From contig CAMYOD010000039.1 of NCBI GenBank assembly GCA_947259975.1, forward strand, positions 12,997 through 76,996: a DNA stretch of 64,000 bases, in the 5' to 3' direction. The number at the start of each line of letters is the position of its first letter. Positions within the stretch are counted from its first letter, which is position 1. Under the pieces are notes generated by a model that saw only the letters and a program-made list of their open reading frames with translations, ran no database searches and was not told the DNA's origin. A program made the position numbers and the translations under genes. This DNA is from an uncultured Gammaproteobacteria bacterium (GTDB taxonomy: Bacteria; Pseudomonadota; Gammaproteobacteria; HyVt-429). Of this stretch, positions 7,136-64,000 are shown in pieces.

Positions 7136-8671
7136 TCAGGGAGCGGTGTCAGCCGCGACAACGATGCCGCTGGGTGGCGGATGTTTGCTGTACAGCAGGC
7201 GGCGGATATCCGGCACGAGAAAGTCGATCAGGCGGTAGACTCGATCCGCCAGCTCTAAATAGCGATCGAACAGGTTGGCAATCGCCTGGTCTTTGGTTTC
7301 CTCTACAAAACCTTCGGTTTGCCGTCGCGTAATGTCCAGCAACCGTATCATCTCCGTGAGCACGACATAGGATTCTTTCTCCAGTTGGCGAATCTCGCTG
7401 CCGTCACTGAAAAATTCCTCCACATTCATCTCCGGTGACACGCCCATGGCGCGTGGAAACTGTCCAAGCTCGGAAAGCCGACTGACGAAATTGCGCAACG
7501 CCTCGCTTGGCGCCTCCTGAACGCTTGTTGTGGTGAGGCTCTCGGTTTCGAGTTCCCGTAATTTACCTTCAAGCACGGCCAGGTGTTCGAGAAAGTCGAC
7601 CAGACTGCTGAAACCGGCGAAAAAGGTGGTCTCATAATCCGCCGCCGCGAGTTGCGAGGTCACGGCATTCTGCCCCGGGGGTACCGCGTCGGCCACAGGT
7701 GCTTTGCCGAGGAGGGAATCCAGCGCGTTCACGAAGCGGGCGTCGTACTTCGGTGTCAGCGGCGCGCCGGCGGCGGACACCGACTGGGCGCTGAGGGCCA
7801 GGGCCGAAACGGCTTCGTCCGGGGATTTGCCCTTGCGCGTCATGGCGACGAAGGCGGACGCCACGGTGACGATACGGGCGTAATCGCCCGGCACATGGAC
7901 GGCATCCGGGTAACCGGTGCCGTCGATGTGTTTCTGGTGCCCATGGACGGCGGCCAAGACGTCGGCGGAGACGGCCATGGTCTTCGCCAGCACGCGAAAA
8001 CTGATCGTTGGGTGTCGCTTGATGGTGGCGAAGTCCTGCTCCGAGAGTTTCCCTTTCCGTAACACCGCCGAATCCACGAAGACCATCCCAATGTCCGCGG
8101 TGAGCCCGGCCAGCGTCAGGTCGTGCACGATTTCCGGCAGGTAACCGAATCTGCGACCGATCAGCGCACACACCAGGGCAGTGCCGACAACGGAGGTGTA
8201 GTGGCCGGATACGATCGCGTCCGCGCCGCTGCAGCGTTCGCCCAGGGAAAGCACGGTGGCGAGCACGTCCCGGTCCTCGCCCAGGTTGTCGCTGAGAGCC
8301 GTGACCGCCGCACGCATGGCGCCGAGGTCGTAGGGGCGGCCGCCCAACAGGTCGCGCTCGAACTCCCTGACCGCGTTTACCGTCTGGGCGATGTGAATCT
8401 GATCGTTGAAATCCTCGATGTCGCGTATGTTGTCACGCTGCCGGTGCATCAGAAGCTGGCCCACGAGTGCCGGCGTCAGGACGGCGCCGGCGGCAAAGAT
8501 CGTGACACCTTTGCGATTGACGATATGTTGCACACTGCGCCACTCGAGCCGGTCAAGCTGCGGCAGACGCTCGGCGGCCAGACGCTCGATCATATCGGCG
8601 TCGAGGCCGAGATTGGCGAGCTTCAGGTCATGTATCGTCGGTCCGCTGCGGTCGTGCGCGAGTTCGTTCAT
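7136..8671 (-). CDS. HD-GYP domain-containing protein (putative c-di-GMP phosphodiesterase) with a long C-terminal extension
   Basis: Contains an HD...HHE...DGTGYP arrangement (…AAVHGHQKHIDGTGYPDAVHVPGDYARIVTVASAF…). Start taken at MNELAHD, with GGGGA 4 nt upstream; the longest ORF extends to 8716. Confidence 0.8.
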   Translation of the reverse strand: MNELAHDRSGPTIHDLKLANLGLDADMIERLAAERLPQLDRLEWRSVQHIVNRKGVTIFAAGAVLTPALVGQLLMHRQRDNIRDIEDFNDQIHIAQTVNAVREFERDLLGGRPYDLGAMRAAVTALSDNLGEDRDVLATVLSLGERCSGADAIVSGHYTSVVGTALVCALIGRRFGYLPEIVHDLTLAGLTADIGMVFVDSAVLRKGKLSEQDFATIKRHPTISFRVLAKTMAVSADVLAAVHGHQKHIDGTGYPDAVHVPGDYARIVTVASAFVAMTRKGKSPDEAVSALALSAQSVSAAGAPLTPKYDARFVNALDSLLGKAPVADAVPPGQNAVTSQLAAADYETTFFAGFSSLVDFLEHLAVLEGKLRELETESLTTTSVQEAPSEALRNFVSRLSELGQFPRAMGVSPEMNVEEFFSDGSEIRQLEKESYVVLTEMIRLLDITRRQTEGFVEETKDQAIANLFDRYLELADRVYRLIDFLVPDIRRLLYSKHPPPSGIVVAADTAP

Positions 8672-29965: not shown

Positions 29966-31789
29966 ATGAGTTTGCGCCCAACCCAAACCCGTTGGTTCGA
30001 AATCCTCACCAGTCGTGATCGCACCGTGTGGGCTCTCGACGCGCTGGCGCACAGCGGTCTGGTGCAGCTCGAAATCGATCCGCGCGCCCTGGAGCGGGTC
30101 GAGCCGGCGGAGCTGCGCCTGCGCCTGCTCGCCCACGACGAGACCGCGAAGCGTTACCAGGCCGTATGGCCGGAGATCGAACCGGGACCGCAGCCGCTCA
30201 AGCGTGCACCGGAGCAACTGCTGGACAATGCGTTGAAGTCAATTGCCGTGTGGGAGCGGGAGGCTGCAACCCTGGTCGAACAACTACAGTCCGCGCGCGT
30301 GCAACACAACAATCTGCAATTGCTGCGCGAGCTGGTGACGGCCGTGGACGAACAAGAGTTGGATCTCGGTTTGTTCTCCTCGCGTGGCGGTCCGATCGCC
30401 GTTGTTTTTTATGCGGTCGTGCCGGAACGGGTGCCGCGCAGAATCCCCGAGGGCGTAATCACCCGCGAATATCGAACGCCGCACCGCAGTTTCTTTCTCG
30501 CCATGGGCGAGTCGGTGCCCATCCTGCGACTCGAGGCTGAGCTGGCGGCCAAGCATGCGCAACGCCTGCAGCTGCCGGTGTGGCTGGGGCGCGACCGGCC
30601 GGCGAATCTCGCACGCATCAATGCGGACGCCGCGAGGCTGCGTGAGGAAATGAGTTCGCTCGACGCGCGCCTGGACGACATTAATGATAAGCATCGTCTG
30701 ACGGACGCCCTGCGCGACATCGCCCTGGTGCGCTGGTACGTGGAGCAGGCGGGGCAGCTCAGCTACAAAGAACGTTTCTGCCGCATCACCGGTTGGACCA
30801 CGGATCTCGACGGCGCGGAACTCAAGACGGTATTGGCCGCGGCGGGTCTGCGCGGGCGGCTGCGGTTTCCGCCCCCACCATCACGCCAGGTGGCGCCGGG
30901 GCGCATGCGTAACCCGCGCTGGGCGCGCCCGTTTGAGTTCCTCACCGGCCTGTTCGGGCAACCGAGTGGCGCCGAGGTGGATCCGAGCCGGCTGCTGGTG
31001 TTCATCACCCCGTTGCTGTTCGGCTATATGTTCCCGGATGTGGTCCACGGTGTTTTGATCGCGCTGGCCGGGCTGTTGCTGGCGCGGCGCTGGCCGCAGG
31101 CGCAGCTGCTCGTGCCCTGCGGCGCCGCCGCGGTGGTCTTCGGTTTCGTCTTTGGTGACGTGTTGGGTCTGCCCGGCATCATCGCGCCGTTGTGGGTGAA
31201 GCCGCTGGATGAACCGATCCTGATTCTGTTGGTGCCGGTGGCCGCGGGTGCGCTGTTGCTGCTGTTCGGACTGCTTCTGGGTGGTTTGCAGGCAAGATGG
31301 CGCGGTCAGCTCGGCGCGTGGATGCTGCTCGATGCGCCCATCATGCTGTTATTCGCAGGCCTGTTTGCGGGCATCGTTTATCGGCCGGCGTTGCTGGTCG
31401 CGGCCGTGGCCGTGTTGTGGTACGTGCTCGGCAGTCTTTATGCCGCGGCCGCGGGGCACATCGACAGCCTGCTCGCGGCGCTCGGTCATTGGATCGAACG
31501 CCTGGCGCAACTGCTCGTGAACACCGTGTCGTTCGTGCGTGTCGGCGCATTTGCCCTCGCCCATGCCGGCCTGTCCGGTGCCATCATCGCGTTGGCCGAG
31601 ATGACGGAGCATCGCATCAGCTACGTCCTGGTCATGCTCATCGGCACCGTCATCACGCTGGTGCTGGAAGGCCTGGTGGTGATGGTGCAGGCGATCCGCC
31701 TGATCTTTTTTGAGTTCTTTCTGCGCTTCCTGCACGCGGAAGGGCGCGAGTTCAAGCCCCTCAAGGCCTCCGGACGGCGCGACACATGA
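29966..31789 (+). CDS. V/A-type ATPase subunit I (a-subunit, 116-kDa family) homolog, orphan
   Basis: 607 aa. The N-terminus MSLRPTQTRWFEILTSRDRTVWALDALAHSGLVQLE parallels the NtpI start. The central motif NPRWARPFEFLTGLFGQPSGAEVDPSRLLVFITPLLFGYMFPDVVHG matches the V-type subunit I pattern NP..vkPFE.lt.mYG.P.Y.EIDPT…P.lFG.MFGD.GHG. C-terminal TM helix SFVRVGAFALAHAGLSGAI matches the SYLRLWALSLAHAQLS helix that carries the essential Arg. No other V/A-ATPase subunits are present in the window. Confidence 0.8.
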   Translation: MSLRPTQTRWFEILTSRDRTVWALDALAHSGLVQLEIDPRALERVEPAELRLRLLAHDETAKRYQAVWPEIEPGPQPLKRAPEQLLDNALKSIAVWEREAATLVEQLQSARVQHNNLQLLRELVTAVDEQELDLGLFSSRGGPIAVVFYAVVPERVPRRIPEGVITREYRTPHRSFFLAMGESVPILRLEAELAAKHAQRLQLPVWLGRDRPANLARINADAARLREEMSSLDARLDDINDKHRLTDALRDIALVRWYVEQAGQLSYKERFCRITGWTTDLDGAELKTVLAAAGLRGRLRFPPPPSRQVAPGRMRNPRWARPFEFLTGLFGQPSGAEVDPSRLLVFITPLLFGYMFPDVVHGVLIALAGLLLARRWPQAQLLVPCGAAAVVFGFVFGDVLGLPGIIAPLWVKPLDEPILILLVPVAAGALLLLFGLLLGGLQARWRGQLGAWMLLDAPIMLLFAGLFAGIVYRPALLVAAVAVLWYVLGSLYAAAAGHIDSLLAALGHWIERLAQLLVNTVSFVRVGAFALAHAGLSGAIIALAEMTEHRISYVLVMLIGTVITLVLEGLVVMVQAIRLIFFEFFLRFLHAEGREFKPLKASGRRDT

Positions 31790-32397
31790 GCGCGATGCAC
31801 GACCGGCGATGGTTAGTCGCGTTGCTCGTGATCTTCGCGGCCCTGGCGGTGGCAATAGCGTACGGTGTTACCCCTGGGTTCGACGCGGCGCTGTTGAATA
31901 ATCTGGCCATGCGGCAAAGCGATGCCGGGGATCGGGCGTTTGGCCTGCTGACGCCGCTGGGCTCGCTGCGCGTCCTCGTCCCCATGGCTATCCTCGTCAT
32001 CGCCATCGTATTGCTGCGGCGGCACGTGCGCGACGCGGTTTTCTTCGCCTTGGCGTTCGGTGGCGCGAGCCTTGCCAACACCTTTATCAAATTGTTAGTC
32101 GCACGCCCACGACCACACGAGTTCGATGCGCTGGTCGCGGCGGGGGGTTATGCCTTCCCCAGCGGTCATGTCACACAGATCGCCGCGTTTGCATTCGCGC
32201 TCTACCTGCTCGCTGCGCGCACGGGCGCGGTATGGCGTTGGCCGGCGGGGTTACTGCTGATGGGGCTGGTCGCCGTGGTCGCGACCTCACGGATCTATCT
32301 GCAGGTGCACTATCCGACGGATGTCATCGGTAGCCTGCTGTTCGCGGGGTTCTGGGTGCTCGCGGCACGGCACGCGGCGAACCGACTGTTTGACTAG
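31786..32397 (+). CDS. PAP2 family phosphatase (phosphatidic acid / undecaprenyl-PP phosphatase-like)
   Basis: Motifs KLLVARPRP, PSGH and SRIYLQVHYPTDV with 6 TM segments. The start ATG overlaps the stop of the subunit-I homolog (ATGA). Confidence 0.85.
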   Translation: MSAMHDRRWLVALLVIFAALAVAIAYGVTPGFDAALLNNLAMRQSDAGDRAFGLLTPLGSLRVLVPMAILVIAIVLLRRHVRDAVFFALAFGGASLANTFIKLLVARPRPHEFDALVAAGGYAFPSGHVTQIAAFAFALYLLAARTGAVWRWPAGLLLMGLVAVVATSRIYLQVHYPTDVIGSLLFAGFWVLAARHAANRLFD

Positions 32398-32900
32398 CCG
32401 CGTGACGGGGTGTCGGTGTGGCGCAGGATCTGATACAGCACCAGCACGACCAGGGCGACGAACACCAACAGGGTCTGTTCGGGGATGGTGAGCCCAAGGA
32501 AGCGCCACTGAATTTCCGCACACTCCCCCGAGCCGGTGAGAACCATCCTCAAGGTCTCGGCTATGGGGAATGACTCGAGCATGTAGGCGAGGTCGACGCC
32601 GCATTCGGGGACCTGGTCCGCGGGGAGATTCTGTAACCAGATGTGGCGGCTGGCCACGGAAATGCCGAGACTGGCGATAAAAAGATTAAGCACACCGTAG
32701 ACTCGCCGGCCGAAACGGCGCGGGTTATGCAGGGCGGCGACCAGAAAGATCGCGGCCATGCCGATGAGCAGGACCCGGTCAACGACGCACAACGGGCAGG
32801 CCTCGAGGCGGAGCACACCCTCGAGATACATGACCGCGAACACCAGGGCGCCGATGCAGATCAGCAGGCCGGCGAAGTTGATGATGCGCGGACTAGGCAA
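32394..32900 (-). CDS. dsbB: Disulfide bond formation protein B
   Basis: CPLCVVDR and …PECGVDLAY…GSGECAEIQW Cys pairs with 4 TM segments. Start assigned to the in-frame TTG at 32898-32900 with GAAGG 4 nt upstream, because the longer ORF (to 33125) has no ATG before TM1. Confidence 0.75.
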   Translation of the reverse strand: MPSPRIINFAGLLICIGALVFAVMYLEGVLRLEACPLCVVDRVLLIGMAAIFLVAALHNPRRFGRRVYGVLNLFIASLGISVASRHIWLQNLPADQVPECGVDLAYMLESFPIAETLRMVLTGSGECAEIQWRFLGLTIPEQTLLVFVALVVLVLYQILRHTDTPSRG

Positions 32901-33046
32901 CGGGCCTTCGCCCCCTGCGGCCGAGTCGTTTTTTCTGCGGCATATTCTTGTAAACCGAAGGTATCTCGAAGGATTCGAACCGCAGCTATGATTGCATAGA
33001 ACGGCTATGTCGGCCAGGTGGCACAGCGATGACGGGGCATTCGTGC

Positions 33047-33174
33047 TGCGCACCCCCAATCCCGCCCCGCTTAATCTCGCGGGACGTCCTGGTCCCGCTC
33101 GAATCGCGGTCTTTCGCTTCACCATCCCAGTGTCGCGAAAGACCGAACGACGCTTCGCGGGCCTGGGGTGCGCA
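33047..33174. repeat. Structured palindromic intergenic element, family 1, copy A
   Basis: Core ccccgcttaatctc-[hairpin gcgggac/gtcccgc]-tcgaatcgcgg-[hairpin ggtctttcgc…gcgaaagacc]-cgaacgacgc is shared with copies B and C. It is flanked by a perfect 10-bp inverted repeat tgcgcacccc/ggggtgcgca. Confidence 0.6.
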
Positions 33175-33246
33175 GATCATCGCGCAAGGCCGAACGATGT
33201 GCCGCGTGGCTGTCGGCCTCGCCAAGCACCATTCGTTCCGCCGTTG

Positions 33247-33375
33247 GCACCAGCTGGCCATGCGCCCAGCTTAATCTCACGGTACGTCCATGTACCGTTC
33301 GAATCGCGGCCCTGCGCTTTACCGTCCCAGTGTCGCGCAGGGCCGAACGACGCCGGGCGCATGGCCAGCTGGTGC
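33247..33375. repeat. Structured palindromic intergenic element, family 1, copy B
   Basis: Same core as copy A with compensatory stem changes (acggtac/gtaccgt and ggccctgcgc/gcgcagggcc). It is flanked by a perfect 21-bp inverted repeat gcaccagctggccatgcgccc. Confidence 0.6.
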
Positions 33376-33392
33376 TTGAGTGCTTATAAAGC

Positions 33393-33479
33393 AAAAACGG
33401 GGTCGGAGTGAATTTTCCATTCGCGGTACTCGACAAATATGCGAGCTTTCCTGGAAAACTTCACTCCGACCCCGTTTTT
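33393..33479. repeat. MITE-like palindromic element, family 2, copy 1 (27-bp terminal inverted repeats)
   Basis: aaaaacggggtcggagtgaattttcca …35-bp spacer… tggaaaacttcactccgaccccgttttt. It lies 22 bp downstream of the pilU stop. Confidence 0.6.
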
Positions 33480-33500
33480 GAACCAGGCTATTGTTCCGCT

Positions 33501-34709
33501 CTACATCCCGGCGCTGCGTTCGGCGTCGCCATCCCGCGGCCCAAAGCTGGCCTTGCCATCGGATTCGTCTTTGGGCGGTTCCTCTTCGGCCGGTTCGTCT
33601 TCGCCCGCCAGTTTGAGTTCACCGACGACGGCCTTGGGCGTGTCCTTTTTCTTTGCCGACAGGTTTACCTTGAGTTTCAGGTTGTTCGGTGAATCCGCAT
33701 TACGCAGGCCCTCCTCCAGGGTAATACGACCCTCGTTGCAAAGTTTGAGCAAGGCGTTGTCGAAGGTTTGCATGCCGAGGTTTTCGGATTTCTCCATCAC
33801 TTCCTTTACGCCGGCGACATCGCCGCGGCGGATCAAATCGCGCACCAGGGGCGTGCCGAGCAGCACCTCCACCGCCGCGGCGCGTTTGCCGTCGATCGAG
33901 GGGATCAGGCGCTGGGAGATAAACGCCTGCAGATTCAGGGAGAGATCGAGCAGCAACTGATTGCGCCGGTCCTCGGGAAAGAAATTGATAATACGATCCA
34001 GCGCCTGATTGGCGTTGTTGGCATGCAGGGTCGAGATGGCCAGATGGCCGGTCTCGGCGAAGGCGATGGCATGTTCCATGGTTTCGCGGTCGCGAATCTC
34101 GCCGATGAGAATCACGTCCGGCGCCTGGCGCAGGGTGTTCTTGAGGGCGTCCTCATAGGAGTCCGTGTCCATGCCCACCTCCCGTTGATTCACCACCGAC
34201 TTCTTGTGTTCGTGGACGAATTCGATGGGGTCCTCGATGGTAATGATATGTCCGGCGCTGTGACGATTACGGTAGTCGATCAACGACGCGAGTGAGGTGG
34301 ACTTGCCGGAACCGGTCGCGCCGACGAATAACACCAGGCCGCGCTTGATCATGATGACCTTGGACAAGATCGGCGGCAGGCCCAGGGCCGCCATGTCGGG
34401 TATCTCGGTCTTGATGTTGCGCACCACCATGGCGACTTCGTTACGCTGCTTGAAGATATTGACGCGAAACCGACCGACCCCGGGCTCGGAGACGGCCAGA
34501 TTCATTTCCGGCTTGCGGTCGAAGGCGGCGCACTGCTCCGCGTCCATGAGCTGGTAGGCGATGTCGCGCACCCGTCCGTTCGGCATAGCTTCGGCCTCGA
34601 GCGGCGTCATGGCGCCGTGAATCTTCACGCTGGCCGGTGCGCCGGTGGACAGATACAGGTCCGATGCGTCCTTGTGCACCATGAGTACGAGATAGTCCTT
34701 GAATTCCAT
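33501..34709 (-). CDS. pilU: Type IV pilus retraction ATPase PilU/PilT family
   Basis: Start MEFKDYLVLMVHKDASDLYLSTGAP, with GGAGG 9 nt upstream. Walker A GATGSGKST, plus …HLAISTLHANNANQALDRIINFF…, and a roughly 45-aa acidic C-terminal tail. The longer ORF (to 34952) runs through repeat copy 2. Confidence 0.88.
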   Translation of the reverse strand: MEFKDYLVLMVHKDASDLYLSTGAPASVKIHGAMTPLEAEAMPNGRVRDIAYQLMDAEQCAAFDRKPEMNLAVSEPGVGRFRVNIFKQRNEVAMVVRNIKTEIPDMAALGLPPILSKVIMIKRGLVLFVGATGSGKSTSLASLIDYRNRHSAGHIITIEDPIEFVHEHKKSVVNQREVGMDTDSYEDALKNTLRQAPDVILIGEIRDRETMEHAIAFAETGHLAISTLHANNANQALDRIINFFPEDRRNQLLLDLSLNLQAFISQRLIPSIDGKRAAAVEVLLGTPLVRDLIRRGDVAGVKEVMEKSENLGMQTFDNALLKLCNEGRITLEEGLRNADSPNNLKLKVNLSAKKKDTPKAVVGELKLAGEDEPAEEEPPKDESDGKASFGPRDGDAERSAGM

Positions 34710-34794
34710 GATGGCCTCCGCAGGAAAGAGAGTCGACTTAATAAGGTATGTCGGACCCGCGCCCGAATCCTGAAGCCGCGCCGATAGCCGGTCG

Positions 34795-34880
34795 AAAAAT
34801 GGAGTCGGAGTGAAGTTTTCCAACGAATCGGGATACTCGTTGGGAATCGCGAATGGAAAATTCACTCCGACCCCATTTTT
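34795..34880. repeat. MITE-like palindromic element, family 2, copy 2
   Basis: aaaaatggagtcggagtgaagttttcca …nested hairpin ccaacga/tcgttgg… tggaaaattcactccgaccccattttt. It ends 4 bp before the ptrB stop and sits about 85 bp upstream of the pilU start. Confidence 0.6.
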
Positions 34881-34884
34881 CCGC

Positions 34885-36972
34885 CTAGTCGGCCAGGTCG
34901 AAGGCCATGAGCAGAAAGGTGTACTGGTCGGCGATCTCGTACAGGTGCTCATAGCGCCCCGATTTGCCGCCGTGCCCGGCGCCCATGTTGATCTTCATGA
35001 TGAGCAGGTGGTCGTCGGTCTTGGTATGGCGCAGGCGCGCGGTCCACTTGGCCGGCTCCCAATAGGTCACCCGGGGGTCGTTCAGGCCGCCGCTGACGAA
35101 CATGGGCGGGTAGGCCCTGGCCGCGATATTGTCGTAGGGCGAGTAACTCTGGATGTGGCGAAACACCGCCGCGGATTCAATGGGGTTGCCCCACTCCGGC
35201 CACTCGATGGGGGTCAGCGGCAGGCTGTCGTCGAGCATGGTGTTGAGGACATCGACGAAGGGCACGTCCAGCACTGCCGCGCGCCACAATTCGGGGGCCT
35301 GGTTCACCGCCGCGCCCATGAGCTCGCCGCCGGCACTGCCGCCGGAGATGGAGATATTGCCCGCCGTGGCATAGTCCGCCTGAACCAGATACCGTGCCAC
35401 GTCGACGAAATCGTTGAAGGTGTTCTCGCGCTTGTCGAGCTTGCCGTCCTCGTACCACTGGTAGCCGAGCTCGTCGCCGCCGCGGATGTGGGCGATGGCG
35501 TAAGCGAAGCCGCGGTCCAGCAGGCTCAGGCGATGGGTCGAGAAATACGGCGACAGGCCGTGGCCGTAGGCGCCGTAAGCATACAGGTGCAGCGGTGCGC
35601 CGGCGCCCGGCTGGAAATCCTTGCGGTAGACAACGGACACCGGGATGCGCACACCGTCGCGGGCGGTGGCGGTCAGCCGCTCGGTGACATACTGGCTCTT
35701 GTCGTACCCGGAGGGGATTTCCTGTTCCTTACGCAGGCTGAGTTCCCGCTCGGCGACCGTATAGTCGAACACCGACGCCGGCGTGACCATGGACTGGTAA
35801 TCGATGCGTAAATGCGTCTGGCGGTATTCCGGGTTGTTGCCAATCTCGACTTCACACACCGTCTCCGGCAGCTCGATGTAATGTTCGGCACCGACCTTGT
35901 CACGAACGCGCAGTTTGTCCAGGCCGTCGACCCGTTCCTCGATGGCGACGAACTCCTCGAATACTTGCAGGCCGCGGAAATAATGTTGATTCGAGCCCGC
36001 AATCAGTGTCTCCCACGCGGCGTGCTCGATCGCATCCTCCGTCGCCACCGCGATACGAAAGTTCTTGTGCTCGTCGTTGCTACGAATGAAGAACTGTCCC
36101 TGACCGTGATCCACGTAATAGTCGTGTTCGGTCTTGCGCGGTGCCATGCAGCGCAGGGGGACGTCGGGAGCGTTGGCCGGCACGATATACACTTCGGCGG
36201 TGACGTGATCGGCGCTGCGAATCAGGATGAATTCCTCGGAGCTGGACAGCTCGCAATGCACGAAGAAGCTCGGGTCCTGTTCTTCGTAGATCACGGGATC
36301 GTTCGCCGGGTCTGTGCCCAGCCGGTGCAGGCGCACCTGATAGGGGCGCCATTCCTTGTTGACCCGGGTGTACAGGAACGCGCTCGAGTCCGACACCCAG
36401 GTGACCTCGCCGTCGGTTTCCAATACGCGGTCCGTCAGCACCTCGCCGCTGGCGAGATCTTTTAGCTGGATGGTAAAGCGCTCCGCACCATTGGTGTCTG
36501 TCGACCAGGCCATCAGCTGTTCGTTGGGACTTACCGCCAGATCGCGCAGGCGAAAATACTCGCAACCCTCGGCGGCCTGATTTTCATCGAGCAGGACGGT
36601 GGCGGCGCCGGCGGGCAGTGCGCGGCGGGCCCAGGCCGGGTATTGGGCGCCGGCAGGGTAGGCCCATTGATATTCAAAGCCGCCTTTGCGCCAGGGCACG
36701 CTGGCCTCGTCGGTCTTGATGCGGCCCTTGAGTTCCTTGAACAGGGTGTCGGTGAGCGCGGCATGGGGCTGCATGACCGTGGCGAAGTAGGCGTTTTCGG
36801 CTTCGAGGTAGGCGAGCACATCGGCGTCGGTGACCTCCGGATAGCCCTGATCTTTCAACCAGTGCCAGGGATCGGACACGGTAATGCCATGATGTGTGAA
36901 GCGGTGCTCGCGTTTGGCGGCGCGGGGCGGCGCGGGCGACTCAGGCGCCTTGAGAAAGTTCATGAATGGCAT
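34885..36972 (-). CDS. ptrB: Oligopeptidase B (protease II), prolyl oligopeptidase family S9
   Basis: Collinear with E. coli PtrB: …GYGAYGHGLSPYFSTHRLSLLDRGFAYAIAHIRGGDELGYQWYEDGK…GGSAGGELMG…, with the Ser-Asp-His triad region conserved. Start taken at MPFMNF (36970-36972); an alternative ATG lies 9 nt downstream. Confidence 0.88.
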   Translation of the reverse strand: MPFMNFLKAPESPAPPRAAKREHRFTHHGITVSDPWHWLKDQGYPEVTDADVLAYLEAENAYFATVMQPHAALTDTLFKELKGRIKTDEASVPWRKGGFEYQWAYPAGAQYPAWARRALPAGAATVLLDENQAAEGCEYFRLRDLAVSPNEQLMAWSTDTNGAERFTIQLKDLASGEVLTDRVLETDGEVTWVSDSSAFLYTRVNKEWRPYQVRLHRLGTDPANDPVIYEEQDPSFFVHCELSSSEEFILIRSADHVTAEVYIVPANAPDVPLRCMAPRKTEHDYYVDHGQGQFFIRSNDEHKNFRIAVATEDAIEHAAWETLIAGSNQHYFRGLQVFEEFVAIEERVDGLDKLRVRDKVGAEHYIELPETVCEVEIGNNPEYRQTHLRIDYQSMVTPASVFDYTVAERELSLRKEQEIPSGYDKSQYVTERLTATARDGVRIPVSVVYRKDFQPGAGAPLHLYAYGAYGHGLSPYFSTHRLSLLDRGFAYAIAHIRGGDELGYQWYEDGKLDKRENTFNDFVDVARYLVQADYATAGNISISGGSAGGELMGAAVNQAPELWRAAVLDVPFVDVLNTMLDDSLPLTPIEWPEWGNPIESAAVFRHIQSYSPYDNIAARAYPPMFVSGGLNDPRVTYWEPAKWTARLRHTKTDDHLLIMKINMGAGHGGKSGRYEHLYEIADQYTFLLMAFDLAD

Positions 36973-37193
36973 GCACGGATAAATCGAATCGCTTGAACCT
37001 ACCCGAAGTCGTGAGTCCGGCACAAGGCCGAACTCACCCGGGTGTTGCCACGAACAACCGCGCCGCGAGAATCCGGGCGCCGTGTGTGATGTCGCCGGGG
37101 AACTTGTGGACGCGGCCTGCGTTCGCCGGATCTGTGGTGAAAACTGCCGCGCGACGGCACCGATCCGCTAAGGGCGGGCCGGTGATTCTGCGC

Positions 37194-49732: not shown

Positions 49733-49745
49733 CTTGAGGTGATGG

Positions 49746-49880
49746 CTCGCGTTACCTGGGCGCCCGTAAAGCGTCGTCGGCCTTGCGCGACGCAGGGATA
49801 GCGAAAGCGGAAGGCCGCGATTCGAGCGCTACAGGGAGGTGGCGCGAGATTAAGCGGGGCGGGCGCCCAGGTAACGCGAG
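49746..49880. repeat. Structured palindromic intergenic element, family 1, copy C (inverted orientation)
   Basis: Its reverse complement aligns with copies A and B (…cgccccgcttaatctcgcgccacctccctgtagcgctcgaatcgcggccttccgc…gcgcaaggccgacgacgc…). It is flanked by its own perfect 21-bp inverted repeat ctcgcgttacctgggcgcccg / cgggcgcccaggtaacgcgag. Confidence 0.6.
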
Positions 49881-49968
49881 ACAAAACTTGACTACTTCCA
49901 TTATCCTGCTCGTATTGCCAAGCGGGCGCATCCGGGCCATAGTCGGTCCCCTACAAGTCGGTATCGCC

Positions 49969-58312: not shown

Positions 58313-58500
58313 AGATCAACGGTTCCGGCCCAATAGCACCACAAACCGGCGGGGTAAGAAAAATTTCGCGTCGGCGACGAATTCGTGGGAACAAAATACC
58401 CACTGTCGCGGTCTAGTACTGTGAGGCGATAAGGATTTATCGTCTCCCCGCTCCTCCTCCCTGAGCGGGTGATTCCGGTACAAATCGGAATCACGATTAC

Positions 58501-58540
58501 GCCCCGGATAACCTCCCTTTCTTTATCCGGGGCATTTTTA
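58501..58540 (+). terminator. Rho-independent terminator downstream of polA
   Basis: GCCCCGGATAA-cctccctttct-TTATCCGGGGC followed by ATTTTTAT. A second palindrome GATTCCGgtacaaatCGGAATC lies at 58471-58492. Confidence 0.6.
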
Positions 58541-58560
58541 TGTCCGGGCGGCTGTCGGCT

Positions 58561-60027: not shown

Positions 60028-61014
60028 TCACTTCTGATCCTCGAGTACGTCGCCGAGCGGACTGCGCACGGCGTTACCACCGCGCTTCAGCACATGGGTG
60101 TAGACCTGGGTGGTGCGTATATCCTTGTGCCCCAATTGCTCCTGCACGGTGCGGATATCCATACCGCGCTCCAGCAGATGGGTGGCGAAGGAATGCCGCA
60201 GCGTGTGGCAGCTGGCGGGCTTGTCGATCCCGGCACGGCGTAACGCCTGTTTGATCGCCTTTTGTACCGAGCTTTCATCCATATGGTGCCGACGGGTCAC
60301 GCTGCTGCGCGGATCGACGCTGCGGCGCGCGCTGGGGAACACATATTGCCAGGCCCAGGAGACGCCGGCATTCGGGTACTTGCGTGCCAGCGCATGGGGC
60401 AGATACACCTCACCGTAGCCGTCGGCGAGATCCTTTTGATGCGTGTTCTTCACCGACTGCAGATGCCGCCGCAGTGGAATCGTGATTTCGTCGGGCAAGG
60501 TGACGACACGATCCTTGCCGCCTTTGCCATCGCGCACCAAGATCGCGCGGTGTTCGAAGTCGATATCCTTGACCCGCAGCCGCAGGCATTCCATCAAGCG
60601 CAGTCCGGAGCCGTAGAGCACACACGCAACGAGCCATTGCTTGCCGTCGAGACAGCGAAACAGACGCCGCACTTCCGCCTTCGACAACACGACCGGCAGG
60701 CGTTGCGAACGCTTCGCGCGGATCGCGTCTATGTCGCCCAGCGGCCGGTCAAGCACCGCCTTGTAAAGAAACACAAGCGCGTTCAGCGCCTGATTCTGTG
60801 TTGCCGCGGCGACCTGATCGTGCACCGCGAGGTGGCTCAGAAAGCGTTCCACCTCGGGTGCACCCATTTCCTCCGGGTGCCGCCGGTTGTGGAAACGTAT
60901 GAAGCGCCGAATCCAGTAAAGATAGGCCTGCTCGGTGCGGATACTGTAGTGGCGTAGACGAATGGCGGCGCGTACGCGCGCCAGAAAGGGCGAGGGCTTT
61001 CCATGCCGGTTCAT
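60028..61014 (-). CDS. intI: Integron integrase IntI (tyrosine recombinase)
   Basis: …[26 protein letters not shown]…[17 protein letters not shown]… plus the IntI-specific insertion [50 protein letters not shown]. Catalytic …[39 protein letters not shown] is present. Start taken at the [11 protein letters not shown]; the ORF-track start at 61056 is a TTG. Confidence 0.92.
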
Positions 61015-61131
61015 GATTCCGTTCCCTTGAATCCGTGGGAAATTTAAAGTAAACAAGTAGTATTAGGGTGTCAAACCCAATCGTTTCCGCGTTTGCGCGG
61101 AAGGCAGGACCGCCAACCACAGGAGGCCGGC

Positions 61132-61275
61132 ATGCATAAGCCGTTGTCTTTAGGGAAGAAGCAGACAAGGACACGCCAAAACCAGGGCACCAAACCTCAC
61201 CCTTCCCCGCGTGTTATACGGAATCTTTCCGTAGTACAACACGGAAACTTTCCGTCTACTCAATGTTATACGTAA
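61132..61275 (+). CDS. Candidate short attI-embedded ORF (47 aa) with strong SD, possibly coupling translation of the first cassette
   Basis: AGGAGG at 61121-61126, 5 nt before the ATG at 61132 (MHKPLSLGKKQTRTRQ…). Its stop TAA at 61273-61275 lies 5 nt before the ATG of the first cassette ORF, which has no SD of its own. Confidence 0.3.
   Translation: MHKPLSLGKKQTRTRQNQGTKPHPSPRVIRNLSVVQHGNFPSTQCYT
61205..61271 (+). other. attI-like recombination site
   Basis: Two GTTATAC core sites (61213-61219 and 61265-71) and two 13-bp direct repeats GGAAWCTTTCCGT (61220-32 and 61243-55), which are putative IntI binding sites. The cassette array begins after G/TT at 61265/61266. Confidence 0.55.
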
Positions 61276-61280
61276 TAAAA

Positions 61281-61724
61281 ATGAATACCACTTTTCTAAT
61301 TAAAGTAACGAGATTTCTCAGTGGTGTACTTCTTGCAATTCTATATGTAAAACTTACTACTGTTTTTCTTACCCAATATACAAAGTTAATGGGTAATTTA
61401 GTGAGTGATGCCGATAAAATATTATCCGTACTTGTTGCTGTAACACTATCATGTGTCATCATTTTTGCAGTGAATTACTTCATCATAAAAGCATCACCAG
61501 TTCTTTTAGGCATCTTTTCGATGGTGTGCGCATTTATATTTTTCTACATAATAAAACCACAAGGAGATTTTGCCTACACAGTCGCCTTGATATATAGCTC
61601 ATTTAGGCATCTGCATAGCACGGTAGCGTTTATCTTAATATTATCCACTCCCATAATTACTGGAATAATAATGAAAAATACGTATAACAAGGCGCTCCAG
61701 CCGACCGCTGAACGCGGCGGCTAA
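61281..61724 (+). CDS. Integron cassette 1 ORF: hypothetical small membrane protein
   Basis: AT-rich 147-aa hydrophobic ORF (MNTTFLIKVTRFLSGVLLAILYV…) whose C-terminal tail …LQPTAERGG is encoded within attC1. Confidence 0.55.
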   Translation: MNTTFLIKVTRFLSGVLLAILYVKLTTVFLTQYTKLMGNLVSDADKILSVLVAVTLSCVIIFAVNYFIIKASPVLLGIFSMVCAFIFFYIIKPQGDFAYTVALIYSSFRHLHSTVAFILILSTPIITGIIMKNTYNKALQPTAERGG

Positions 61725-61739
61725 GCTCATACGTTAGGC
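61681..61739 (+). other. attC site of cassette 1
   Basis: cgTATAACaa-ggcgctccagccgaccgc-tgaa-gcggcggctaag-ctcatac-GTTAGGC, with an imperfect internal palindrome AGCCGACCGC/GCGGCGGCT. Confidence 0.6.
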
Positions 61740-61769
61740 ATTCAATGAATCAAACAAAGGGGACAGTTA

Positions 61770-62474
61770 ATGGCACGTAAAAAGAAAGCTGCTGCTAAGA
61801 AATCAGCCAAATCAGAAGCAAGTAAACGTAGCTATATGTCACAAGCCGATGTTCCAAGCTCGTCCCTTGAACAGGCGCTTCGTATACCCCGTGCAATAGC
61901 AGAAAATTATGCTGGCGGTCCTGTCACACCTCTGCAACTTGCATCAGCTCTAAATATGGCTCCAACATCTGGACCATTTAGAAGTCTATGCGGTGCTTCA
62001 ATTGCTTATGGGCTTACTGAAGGTGGTTACAATGCTCAAGAAATAAAGCTAACTCCATTAGGTAAGCGAGTCGTAAAACCCTTAGAAGAAGGCGATGACA
62101 TTGTCGCAAAACGTGAAGCTGTCCTAAAGCCACGTGTAACGGGTGAATTTCTGAATAAGTATAATGGCTCACCCTTGCCAAGGCACGATATCGCAATGAA
62201 CGTTCTTGAAGAAATGAATGTACCATCTGATAAAACAGAGTCAGTTTACACCTTAATTCTTGACAGTGCCGAAGCAGTAGGCTTATTACGAGATATTAAA
62301 AACAAGCAGTATGTAGATCTTACAGGTGTTGATCAATCGGAAAATACTGAAAACGAAGGTGAGGAAGTCGATACGCAAGATACAGATGAAAGTGATAATG
62401 AAATTGAAACAACACAAACAAGTACAACACACAAATCAACAGCGCCAGCAGGTGCCATGTTGCAGATGAAATGA
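61770..62474 (+). CDS. Integron cassette 2 ORF A: hypothetical protein with Lys/Ala-rich N-terminus and acidic C-terminus
   Basis: Own SD (AAAGGGGA, 6 nt spacing). 234 aa, MARKKKAAAKKSAKSEASKR…GGPVTPLQLASALNMAPTSGPFRSLCGASIAYGLTEGGYNAQEIKLTPLGKRVV… followed by a DQSENTENEGEEVDTQDTDESDNEIETT acidic tail. Confidence 0.55.
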   Translation: MARKKKAAAKKSAKSEASKRSYMSQADVPSSSLEQALRIPRAIAENYAGGPVTPLQLASALNMAPTSGPFRSLCGASIAYGLTEGGYNAQEIKLTPLGKRVVKPLEEGDDIVAKREAVLKPRVTGEFLNKYNGSPLPRHDIAMNVLEEMNVPSDKTESVYTLILDSAEAVGLLRDIKNKQYVDLTGVDQSENTENEGEEVDTQDTDESDNEIETTQTSTTHKSTAPAGAMLQMK

Positions 62475-62737
62475 AATTGATAGATTCTGAAGCGAATGAA
62501 CACGTAATAATTAACCCAAATGTTTTGATCGAAATTGGCGCCGCAATGGCGCTTTATGGTCGAAGATTCATTTTACTCGTAAAGGAAGGCGTAGACTTGC
62601 CTTCAAATCTCCAGGGACTTTACGAAGTCCGTTACAAGGGTGAAACGCTGGACGGTGAAGCAACAATAAAATTATTGGAAGCAATCAACGATATTAAGAA
62701 TAATCCATTACCAGATCGATATAAAAGCGATGCCTAA
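62471..62737 (+). CDS. Integron cassette 2 ORF B: hypothetical 88-aa protein overlapping ORF A (ATGA)
   Basis: MKLIDSEANEHVIINPNVLIEIGAAMALYGRRFILLVKEGVDLPSNLQGLYEVRYKGE…. Its stop lies inside the R'' box of attC2. Confidence 0.5.
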   Translation: MKLIDSEANEHVIINPNVLIEIGAAMALYGRRFILLVKEGVDLPSNLQGLYEVRYKGETLDGEATIKLLEAINDIKNNPLPDRYKSDA

Positions 62738-62803
62738 CAATGCGCTCGTTCGGACGCAAACTCCGCTGCGCTTCGTTTGCGCCGCACAGCTTAAACGTTA
62801 GGT
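62732..62803 (+). other. attC site of cassette 2
   Basis: GCCTAACaatgcgctcgttcggacgcaaactccgctgcgcttcgtttgcgccgcacagcttaaacGTTAGGT. Confidence 0.65.
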
Positions 62804-62825
62804 GGTGTATGGCGGGGAAAAGGGC

Positions 62826-63314
62826 ATGACGCTCATCCGTGACAACAGTCTCATAGCTATGGCCGTCGCACTGACAGGTGGGGCTCTATTGCACTTTGGC
62901 GAAAAGATCCTTTTCATCTTGCTTTCGCCCTACACCATCGCCGTAGGTGACAGAATCTTCAATGATAAAGGGATGACGGAGCTGTGGGGGGTCACGTTCT
63001 TGTTTAATGTAGTGGCCTTCGCTATATCCGCATTAATCGTCTCGTTAGTGGTCGCTATGACCCTACGCGCTATTCTTGCTTACCGAGACATGTTTTACCC
63101 GCTTATCTCTGTCGTGCCGGTCGCACTCCTGGGGTATTGGTGGTTCCTCCATGATTCGGCAGGTGCTGTTGAGGGCATGCCATCCGAGCACATCGCCACG
63201 CTGCTGGCCCGGCCGATTGTGCTCATGGCTATCTTTCTATTTCTAGCGTGGCGATTTCGAAAAGAAACACCACCTAACAATTCACTCCAGCCGACCGGCT
63301 CCGCCGGCGGCTGA
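62826..63314 (+). CDS. Integron cassette 3 ORF: hypothetical membrane protein
   Basis: SD GGGGAAAAGGG precedes the ATG at 62826 (MTLIRDNSLIAMAVALTGGALLHF…). 162 aa with 4-5 TM segments; the tail …NNSLQPTGSAGG is encoded within attC3. Confidence 0.55.
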   Translation: MTLIRDNSLIAMAVALTGGALLHFGEKILFILLSPYTIAVGDRIFNDKGMTELWGVTFLFNVVAFAISALIVSLVVAMTLRAILAYRDMFYPLISVVPVALLGYWWFLHDSAGAVEGMPSEHIATLLARPIVLMAIFLFLAWRFRKETPPNNSLQPTGSAGG

Positions 63315-63329
63315 GTTCAACCGTTAGGC
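63272..63329 (+). other. attC site of cassette 3 (same attC family as cassette 1)
   Basis: ACCTAACaattcactccagccgaccggctccgccggcggctgagttcaacc-GTTAGGC. It shares ctccagccgacc…gccggcggctgag with attC1. Confidence 0.65.
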
Positions 63330-63371
63330 TCATTAAGCAAGGATTGTAAAATTATCAACCTCCTGCCAATT

Positions 63372-63968
63372 ATGGGCGTCCTCTTCGGAGTCGCCTTTTT
63401 AGGTGCCGCGACTGCCTGGTATCCTGGCGGATATCAATGGGGCGAACACACGATTTCCGCCCTATTTCAAGGTACAACACCGAGCGGAGTGGCGAATCCT
63501 GCAAGACCTATTGCTGTGATGGGCGTTCTCACAGCCATGAGCGGCATCGCGTTACTCTTCCACCTTGTATCGCGGTGGACTTCCCGATCATTTCAAAAGG
63601 GAGCAATCCAGATCGCCGGCATCGCTGCAACTGTGTTCGCGTCACTCACAGTTGTACTGCCGCATGATCTGATGGTCAGCCTAGCTCTCCTCTGCTTCGT
63701 GGTTGCCACCGTCGCTATCCTCAACGTACTCTATAATGAATGCGAGATAGTGCTATTTGCACTCGGCATCATGTTCCTAGCCCTGGAATTCAGTACAGCG
63801 GTTATGTACTTCGGCAACGTTTGGCTTCAATTCCTTCCAGTGGCGCAGAAGGCAGCATTGGTGCTCATCGGAATGTGGCTCTTCATAGTACTACACCGGC
63901 TAAGCACCCAAACAACTCGTTCGTCAATTCCAGAGAAGCGCGAAGATATTAAAGACTCGAAATATTGA
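63372..63968 (+). CDS. Integron cassette 4 ORF: hypothetical membrane protein
   Basis: 198-aa hydrophobic ORF (MGVLFGVAFLGAATAWYPGGYQWGEHTISALF…) followed by GCCTAAC at 63976. Confidence 0.55.
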   Translation: MGVLFGVAFLGAATAWYPGGYQWGEHTISALFQGTTPSGVANPARPIAVMGVLTAMSGIALLFHLVSRWTSRSFQKGAIQIAGIAATVFASLTVVLPHDLMVSLALLCFVVATVAILNVLYNECEIVLFALGIMFLALEFSTAVMYFGNVWLQFLPVAQKAALVLIGMWLFIVLHRLSTQTTRSSIPEKREDIKDSKY

Positions 63969-63975
63969 AAACAAA

Positions 63976-64000
63976 AGCCTAACAACTAAGTCAACTAGGA
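63976..64000 (+). other. attC site of cassette 4 (5' part; truncated by window end)
   Basis: GCCTAACaactaagtcaactagga…, an R''-box-like start. Confidence 0.35.

Follow-up and report, generated by a model that had tools for sequence, protein, structure and literature searches.

The pilU locus and its two hairpin elements

We analysed a 64-kb stretch of DNA (the window) from contig CAMYOD010000039.1 of an uncultured Gammaproteobacteria bacterium, in which a pilU gene is flanked on both sides by small hairpin-forming repeats to which an earlier note on this DNA had drawn attention. Hairpin element 1 occupies positions 33393-33479, with arms at 33393-33419 (AAAAACGGGGTCGGAGTGAATTTTCCA) and 33452-33479 (TGGAAAACTTCACTCCGACCCCGTTTTT) around a 32-nt interior, and hairpin element 2 occupies positions 34795-34880, with arms at 34795-34822 and 34854-34880; no strand is assigned to either, they are 86 to 87 nt in size with arms of 27 to 28 nt, and neither carries an open reading frame (ORF) of its own. 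The three genes around them are all on the minus strand. The pilU gene (33501-34709) encodes a type IVa pilus ATPase of the PilT/PilU family (402 aa), which scored 441 bits against TIGR01420 (cutoff 319) and whose homologues are named PilU. Upstream of it is a ptrB-like gene for an S9 peptidase of the oligopeptidase B family (34885-37023; NF007511, E = 2.4e-172, under the equivalog cutoff), whose homologues are 683 to 759 aa long with Pfam domains PF02897 and PF00326, and whose true start is probably downstream of 37023. The next gene downstream of pilU is dsbB-like (about 32394-32900), its start being approximate, as the listed ORF reaches 33125 and homology begins at about residue 83.

On the minus strand, element 2 begins 4 nt past the ptrB stop codon (34885-34887) and its end is 85 nt short of the pilU ATG (34707-34709), while the pilU stop codon (33501-33503) is followed 21 nt later by the start of element 1, and the minus-strand transcript of each element consists of an A-run, a GC-rich stem, the interior, the second half of the stem, and UUUUU. 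Both the locations of the elements and their placement relative to the genes agree with the earlier note, and its description of small non-coding hairpin-forming repeats in terminator and promoter-proximal positions around pilU holds. No sigma-70-like promoter was predicted in the 85 nt separating element 2 from pilU, so that expression of pilU may rely on a non-consensus promoter or on read-through.

The arms are complementary over 25 nt at 96% in element 1 and 92% in element 2, and RNA folding of both elements gave -48 to -53 kcal/mol on either strand with z scores of -7 to -10 relative to dinucleotide shuffles (for element 1, -51.2 with z -9.2 on the plus strand and -53.4 with z -10.2 on the minus strand). 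The single arm mismatch of element 2, as read from the sequence, takes the form of a G-U pair on the sense transcript (minus strand), and on the plus strand that of A mismatched with C. A search for the 20-nt arm pattern with up to 3 mismatches returned exactly four arms in 64 kb, those of the two elements, in comparison to 0.01 expected; no further inverted arm pairs above chance were found in the window using a 15-nt arm with up to 4 mismatches, and the two elements are its longest near-perfect short-range inverted repeats. Element 2 aligns to element 1 with 81.6% identity and one gap as the reverse complement, in comparison to 72.3% and many gaps in the forward sense, and the single bulged base is located on opposite arms; the two elements thus lie inverted relative to each other, and not in direct orientation as had been claimed. 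The earlier claim of near identity is right for the arms, which are conserved between the elements, but not for the central 25 nt or so, which are about 60% identical. The arm in its extended form is AAAnGGGGTCGGAGTGAAT (arm strings GGGGTCGGAGTGAA and, for the 20-nt comparison below, AAATGGGGTCGGAGTGAATT), which is not self-complementary and is without a GTAG or CGTC tag. No target-site duplication was found at either element (flanks ...TAAAGC and GAACCA... for copy 1, ...GGTCG and CCGCC... for copy 2), the A-run and T-run at the borders being complementary parts of the palindrome and not direct repeats, and neither element matched Rfam at the gathering threshold or at E values up to 5.

In terms of the gene between them, the results showed that pilU is quite typical of its relatives, although it had been described as unusual for having no adjacent pilT and for its acidic C-terminal tail. 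The closest pilU homologues checked (72% to 80% identity) are orphans as well, found in varied contexts with no adjacent pilT; an acidic low-complexity C-terminal tail was present in all 45 of the homologues inspected; and the GC content of pilU, about 0.60, is the same as that of the neighbouring genes. An orphan pilU with an acidic tail is thus normal for the clade, and nothing in the sequence indicates that the gene here is other than an ordinary, unmobilised one. The nearest pilU homologues are 76% to 82% identical and the nearest ptrB homologues 66% to 70%, their gene order is not shared, and no equivalent of the hairpins was found beside pilU in these relatives. Downstream of one related pilU (locus L012), a 720-nt gap carries a different, lineage-specific palindromic repeat in several copies (CCTTTTCTTTG / CAAAGAAAAGG, 7456-7596) and a canonical bidirectional terminator (7830-7863).

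Members of the repeat family in other genomes

To define the family, one representative genome per species and a metagenome collection were scanned with the pattern GTCGGAGTGAA, 30 to 60 nt, TTCACTCCGAC, which yielded 10 loci in genomes and 34 in metagenomes. The extended arm described above, in the form AAA-N-GGGGTCGGAGTGAAT(T), is common to about 30 of them and goes beyond what the pattern demands; further matches, whose flanks differ, were left out as unrelated palindromes or tandem repeats. The hosts range from 31% to 71% in GC content, and those that are named belong to the Gammaproteobacteria (Cellvibrionales, Porticoccus, Moraxellaceae, and unclassified metagenome-assembled genomes, or MAGs). 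The interiors are unrelated between lineages and common within one genome, as in a Porticoccus MAG (L004) where two copies 3.7 kb apart are 100% identical, and on both sides of the conserved core the stem is extended by lineage-specific sequence that is still complementary. Five metagenome contigs of 34% to 38% GC (L021, L043, L045, L047, and L051) hold a separate family of short elements with longer inverted termini (GACTGTAGTCCTTCGTCGGAGTGAA), which include an 11-mer of the arm within different flanks.

A pair of orthologous loci (L032 and L031) allowed the conservation of the arm to be compared with that of its surroundings. The adjacent dsbA-like gene is 84.8% identical at the nucleotide level and 66% at third codon positions and the interior of the element is about 60% identical, whereas the arms are 100% identical, including 16 positions in them that were left free by the search pattern. 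Because the arms are unchanged while the interior and the third codon positions have diverged, the arm sequence is constrained or homogenised beyond the need of ordinary terminator function. The arms also occur in arrangements other than the simple doublet: solo or duplicated arms were found in six loci (L004, L005, L007, L018, L044, and L048), a tandem pair in L003, and in L022 one copy that lies nested within the middle of another. Flanking direct repeats were absent from the four independent insertion contexts of a sister subfamily (L004/L018/L037), as they were from the window.

For roughly half of the family members, a gene that reads towards the element has its stop codon 9 to 45 nt away, while gene starts facing an element are mostly more than 100 nt away; in L005 the element is situated between two convergent genes, for a P450 and an MDMPI-domain protein. 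The genes nearby are of ordinary and diverse kinds, and the 25 Pfam families found most often in 137 neighbouring ORFs include no transposase or recombinase, a ranking that single occurrences would escape. No copy of the element was found in 72,556 plasmids or in viral contigs, and the arm as a sequence string was found in no paper of the searchable literature when 12- to 13-nt strings were used, while 10-mers matched only unrelated papers. As at pilU, pairs of the same subfamily 1.4 to 3.7 kb apart bracket one to a few genes in L004/L048 and in L044, the bracketed content being, in L044, a PitA-like transporter and, in the loci L004/L048 of Porticoccus, a segment of 3.6 kb with several genes. 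Inside this Porticoccus segment, 102 nt from one of the identical elements, is an ORF of 312 aa with no Pfam or NCBIfam match and a GC content at third codon positions (GC3) of 0.39 (L004 6698-7636, minus strand, which equals L048 7645-8583 and the 312-aa ORF of L024).

Resemblance to TIRYT-flanking repeats and the alternatives

TIRYTs are RAYT-like tyrosine transposases whose genes have terminal inverted repeats on either side in place of REPs (Di Nocera, De Gregorio & Rocco 2013, PMC3733652), and most of them have been placed in TnpA_REP subclass 2.1 (Quentin et al. 2018, PMC6006769). The repeats form moderately abundant families that occur as singles, dimers, and clusters, and most of those that flank a TIRYT share the motif GGGG[AT][CG]A[CG] (GGGGWSAS) (PMC3733652). 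We took TIRYT queries from the supplement of that paper and searched them against the window and all fetched loci. TIRYT genes on plasmids, located by tblastn, are flanked by AAA(N)GGGGTCAGAGT... repeats, and the flanking repeats were read in Skermanella (AAATGGGGTCAGAGTCGATT), Iodobacter (AACTGGGGTCAGAGCAAATT), Pseudoalteromonas (AAAGGGTCAGAGTTGTTGA), and Pseudomonas aeruginosa (AAAGGGGACAGATTTATTTTCCC). The 20-nt window arm agrees with the Skermanella repeat at 17 of 20 positions and with the Iodobacter repeat at 16 of 20, while the same comparison in 68 kb of control loci gave no match with 4 or fewer mismatches. To our knowledge, TIRYT transposases and their repeats have so far been catalogued from sequence only, with no experimental work.

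The sole TIRYT match among the window and the fetched loci was a decayed fragment of a Y1/HUH gene in L008 (6694-6973, also in L025; E about 1e-10), which is about 900 nt from a family element at 7865-7935 with a Uma2-family gene in between. Just upstream of the fragment is a degenerate arm, GGTTAAAGGGGTAGAGTAG (also given as AAAGGGGTAGAGTAGAG), and a small hairpin is present as well. Homologues of the fragment are short, mostly degraded Y1 genes of other lineages, none of which is flanked by the exact arm. The organisation of the repeats is that of TIRtrons, in that they occur as doublets, as singles or duplicates, in tandem and nested, without target-site duplication, and this lack of duplications is consistent, as are the hairpins formed by doublets and the arms found alone, in tandem, or nested, with the REP/REPIN-style biology attributed to Y1/HUH enzymes.

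With moderate confidence, we thus interpret the two elements as REPIN-like, non-autonomous doublets of TIRYT-type repeats that came to occupy terminator positions, pilU itself not having been mobilised; they are probably small passenger repeats which also resemble transcription terminators. Judged by sequence similarity and by behaviour, they would be a new member of the known TIRYT/RAYT-type class of palindromic repeats. Each element would be an inverted doublet of one repeat of about 19 to 27 nt, beginning AAA-N-GGGGTCGGAGTGAAT..., and the doublets would be copied by a single-copy TIRYT (Y1/HUH) that is, or once was, encoded elsewhere in the genome, a mode of copying expected to leave no target-site duplication. 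Since the repeat begins with an A-run and GGGG, its inverted doublet has the anatomy of a bidirectional Rho-independent terminator, and a GGGGUCGGAGUG... stem followed by UUUUU on the minus-strand RNA is found just past both the ptrB and the pilU stop codons. The hairpins may thus end or stabilise the ptrB and pilU mRNAs and leave pilU as a largely self-contained unit, and the duplex of about 28 bp would be a plausible substrate for RNase III, as Correia elements are cut. That the two elements flank pilU would most likely be due to local duplication or to preferential retention of hairpins at gene 3' ends. If so, the family supplies TIRYT repeats with a well-defined unit, an arm of about 19 nt which is identical across very different base compositions, and the A-run-GGGG end of the repeat offers a simple route from selfish repeat to useful 3'-end signal; for annotation, pilU would be recorded as an ordinary orphan gene that has a hairpin repeat at each end.

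Several observations weigh against this interpretation. No TIRYT or RAYT gene was detected by tblastn in the 64-kb window, and no intact TIRYT gene flanked by exactly the window arm was found among the TIRYT genes and loci examined. The arm (GGGGTCGG) agrees with the published 8-nt consensus at 7 of 8 positions and carries G, not A, at position 7; the repeat beside a Thiodictyon TIRYT fragment carries the same G (GGGGACGG). The copies are few, with two in 64 kb and a few per genome elsewhere, which is fewer than for classical REPINs, and the use of an exact core in the search accounts for part of the apparent conservation of the core. In some family members the stem is followed by only three T (e.g., CCCCTTTAGCG), which would make them weak terminators. 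The sense-strand hairpin is the more stable one in 11 of 13 family members, which, together with the G-U pair of element 2 on the sense transcript, gives a weak hint of a role at the RNA level, as the differences are small and many of the cases are related.

Among known systems, TIRtrons of TnpA_REP subclass 2.1 (PMC3733652, PMC6006769) share with the window family the outer motif of an A-run followed by GGGG, W, S, R, and S, the occurrence as singles, dimers, and clusters, the absence of target duplication, hosts that are mainly Proteobacteria, and a decayed TIRYT near one family member; the differences include the G at position 7 and the placement of the window repeat in hairpin doublets at gene 3' ends instead of beside a transposase gene. 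REPINs and REPs mobilised by RAYTs (Bertels & Rainey 2011, PMC3116915; Nunvar et al. 2010, PMC2817692) are similar in having two inverted units with a spacer that form a long hairpin, in being intergenic and mostly downstream of genes, in lacking duplications, in persisting vertically at orthologous sites, and in the presumed action in trans of a single-copy Y1 transposase. A REP unit is defined as an imperfect palindrome of 20 to 40 nt, one end of which carries a GTAG (or CGTC) tag that is unpaired (PMC3733652), while the window unit is neither such a palindrome nor tagged, and its copy number is low (two in 64 kb and at most a few in the stretches from other genomes) in comparison to tens to hundreds for REPINs. 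SPRITE is likewise an interspersed repeat that mimics an intrinsic terminator, occurs in clusters, and inserts into copies of itself, but it belongs to another phylum and has another sequence, and the link to a transposase family is proposed here for the window family and not for SPRITE.

The alternative that survives best, though we consider it unlikely, is that the elements are ordinary local intrinsic terminators that were duplicated, e.g., by gene conversion, with no dedicated mobility, the likeness to sequences elsewhere being convergence on an A-run, a GGGG stem, and a T-run. The placement directly after stop codons, both here and in many family members, is what this explanation predicts, as are the hairpin with five T on both strands and the stable presence at orthologous sites in related genomes. 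However, an arm of 15 to 19 nt that is identical across hosts of 31% to 71% GC is far beyond what termination needs, nested and tandem copies and solo arms exist, and the similarity to TIRYT-flanking repeats is specific. The stem of about 28 bp with an interior of about 30 nt is also atypical, being far longer than a canonical terminator, and a terminator scan with loops of 3 to 8 nt did not report either element; a downstream folding scan of all genes was uninformative in GC-rich DNA. The earlier note had also raised the case of a ubiquitous terminator hairpin found after hundreds of genes, which is not what the window contains, as only 2 of its roughly 60 genes carry the element.

A lower probability still is assigned to a classical MITE of the Correia/ERIC type, as had been proposed earlier, that is, a deletion derivative of an insertion sequence with a DDE transposase, moved by cut-and-paste with the 27-nt arms as transposase binding sites. 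The elements do have the outline of a MITE, being small and non-coding with terminal inverted repeats of 27 to 28 nt, conserved termini, and a variable interior, and copies within one genome share interiors, as the two identical ones in L004 do. Correia elements (NEMIS, Neisseria) and ERIC (Enterobacteria/Yersinia) are also elements of about 100 nt with inverted termini of about 26 nt that form long hairpins, and they are co-transcribed with their neighbours and affect mRNA processing by RNase III and RNase E as well as transcription (review PMC10969869). What speaks against a MITE is the absence of direct repeats, both at the window copies, whose A-run and T-run flanks are mutually complementary, and in the four independent L004/L018/L037 contexts; furthermore, a search of the window gave no insertion sequence with these termini that could be the parent, the 25 commonest Pfam families of the neighbouring ORFs include no transposase, DDE or other, plasmids and viral contigs gave no match, and it is TIRYT repeats that the arms resemble. 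A Correia element creates a duplication of its TA target and contains promoters and an IHF site, and there are more than 100 of these elements per genome. The TA duplication, the promoters, the IHF site, and the high copy number were all not seen here, and there is no sequence similarity to Correia or ERIC elements.

The reading of the elements as TIRYT-type passenger doublets could also be taken further, although we rate either extension as very unlikely: doublets that bracket genes would copy the TIRtron layout, so that a Y1/HUH transposase moves host genes as cargo, or the doublet would be a self-propagating portable terminator which inserts at hairpin apices beside stop codons. A portable terminator, if real, would mean that operon boundaries have been reshaped across Gammaproteobacteria. 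More improbable again is the idea that repeat, pilU, and repeat together form a composite mobile unit, by which pilU arrived here or can be moved, as the earlier note had suggested for the pair. This would account for the position of pilU exactly between both copies, for the recurrence of bracketing same-subfamily pairs in L004/L048 and L044, and for the different neighbours of pilU and ptrB in the nearest relatives. But the copies are inverted and just 82% identical with diverged interiors, so that any such event must be old; the composition of pilU is that of its neighbours; orphan pilU genes in varied contexts without the element are normal in relatives; these relatives are only 70% to 82% identical, which makes the lost synteny uninformative; and there are neither duplications nor junction scars. 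The possibility that the elements are attC-like recombination sites of the integron at 60-64 kb of the window, or sites of another tyrosine recombinase, is close to negligible, since, even though an integron integrase and attC-bearing cassettes are present, attC sites are likewise imperfect palindromes whose ends are conserved, whose middles vary, and which have extrahelical bases, and one attC has the 10-mer AATTCACTCC in common with the arm, the R'' (RYYYAAC) and R' (GTTRRRY) boxes are absent (copy 1 has AAAAAC...GTTTTT, copy 2 has AAAAAT...ATTTTT, and most family members have AAAGGGG...CCCCTTT), the elements are 25 kb off on the 3' side of intI and outside the cassette array, and the array's own attC sites (e.g., 63273-63329, CCTAACA...GTTAGGC) are unrelated in sequence. 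Readings as pdif, protelomerase sites, DNA-uptake sequences, and IS200/IS605 ends were dropped for absent core motifs, wrong spacing, or unfit copy numbers.

Other features of the window

Between the dsbB-like gene and element 1 are two tandem copies (33035-33185 and 33240-33385, plus strand) of a second, unrelated repeat family of about 130 to 150 nt, with a third copy at 49735-49890 on the minus strand. The copies share the junction sequences GCTTAATCTC, TCGAATCGCGG, and CCGAACGACGC, and each has its own, different closing stem of about 20 bp; the consensus fold has 50 pairs, 19 of which show compensatory changes among the three copies. No Rfam match was obtained even at E values up to 5, and the repeat was not found in viral contigs or in the fetched loci. 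It looks like an undescribed structured RNA or a structured mobile element. At 29966-31789 on the plus strand is an ORF resembling V-type ATPase subunit I, with sulfur-transport and rhodanese genes upstream.

The end of the window (60028-64000) is occupied by a chromosomal integron, whose intI gene (60028-61056, minus strand) scored 492 bits against TIGR02249 (cutoff 265). At least three complete cassettes run divergently from intI, with attC sites at about 61683-61739, 62733-62803, and 63273-63329, and the start of a fourth is at 63978 (CCTAACA...GTTAGGC). The first cassettes have a GC3 of 0.26 to 0.36 in comparison to about 0.75 elsewhere, and one cassette ORF (62471-62737) contains a fragment of a CAP12/Pycsar-type TIR domain. 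At the other end, two parS-like sites (GTTTCACGTGAAAC) are located 30 nt apart at 1429-1481, suggesting that the window may be near a replication origin or partition region. Finally, positions 58445-58541 on the plus strand gave an Rfam match at the gathering level (62 bits) to anti-hemB (RF02837), a Burkholderia small RNA, in what is apparently a gammaproteobacterial MAG.

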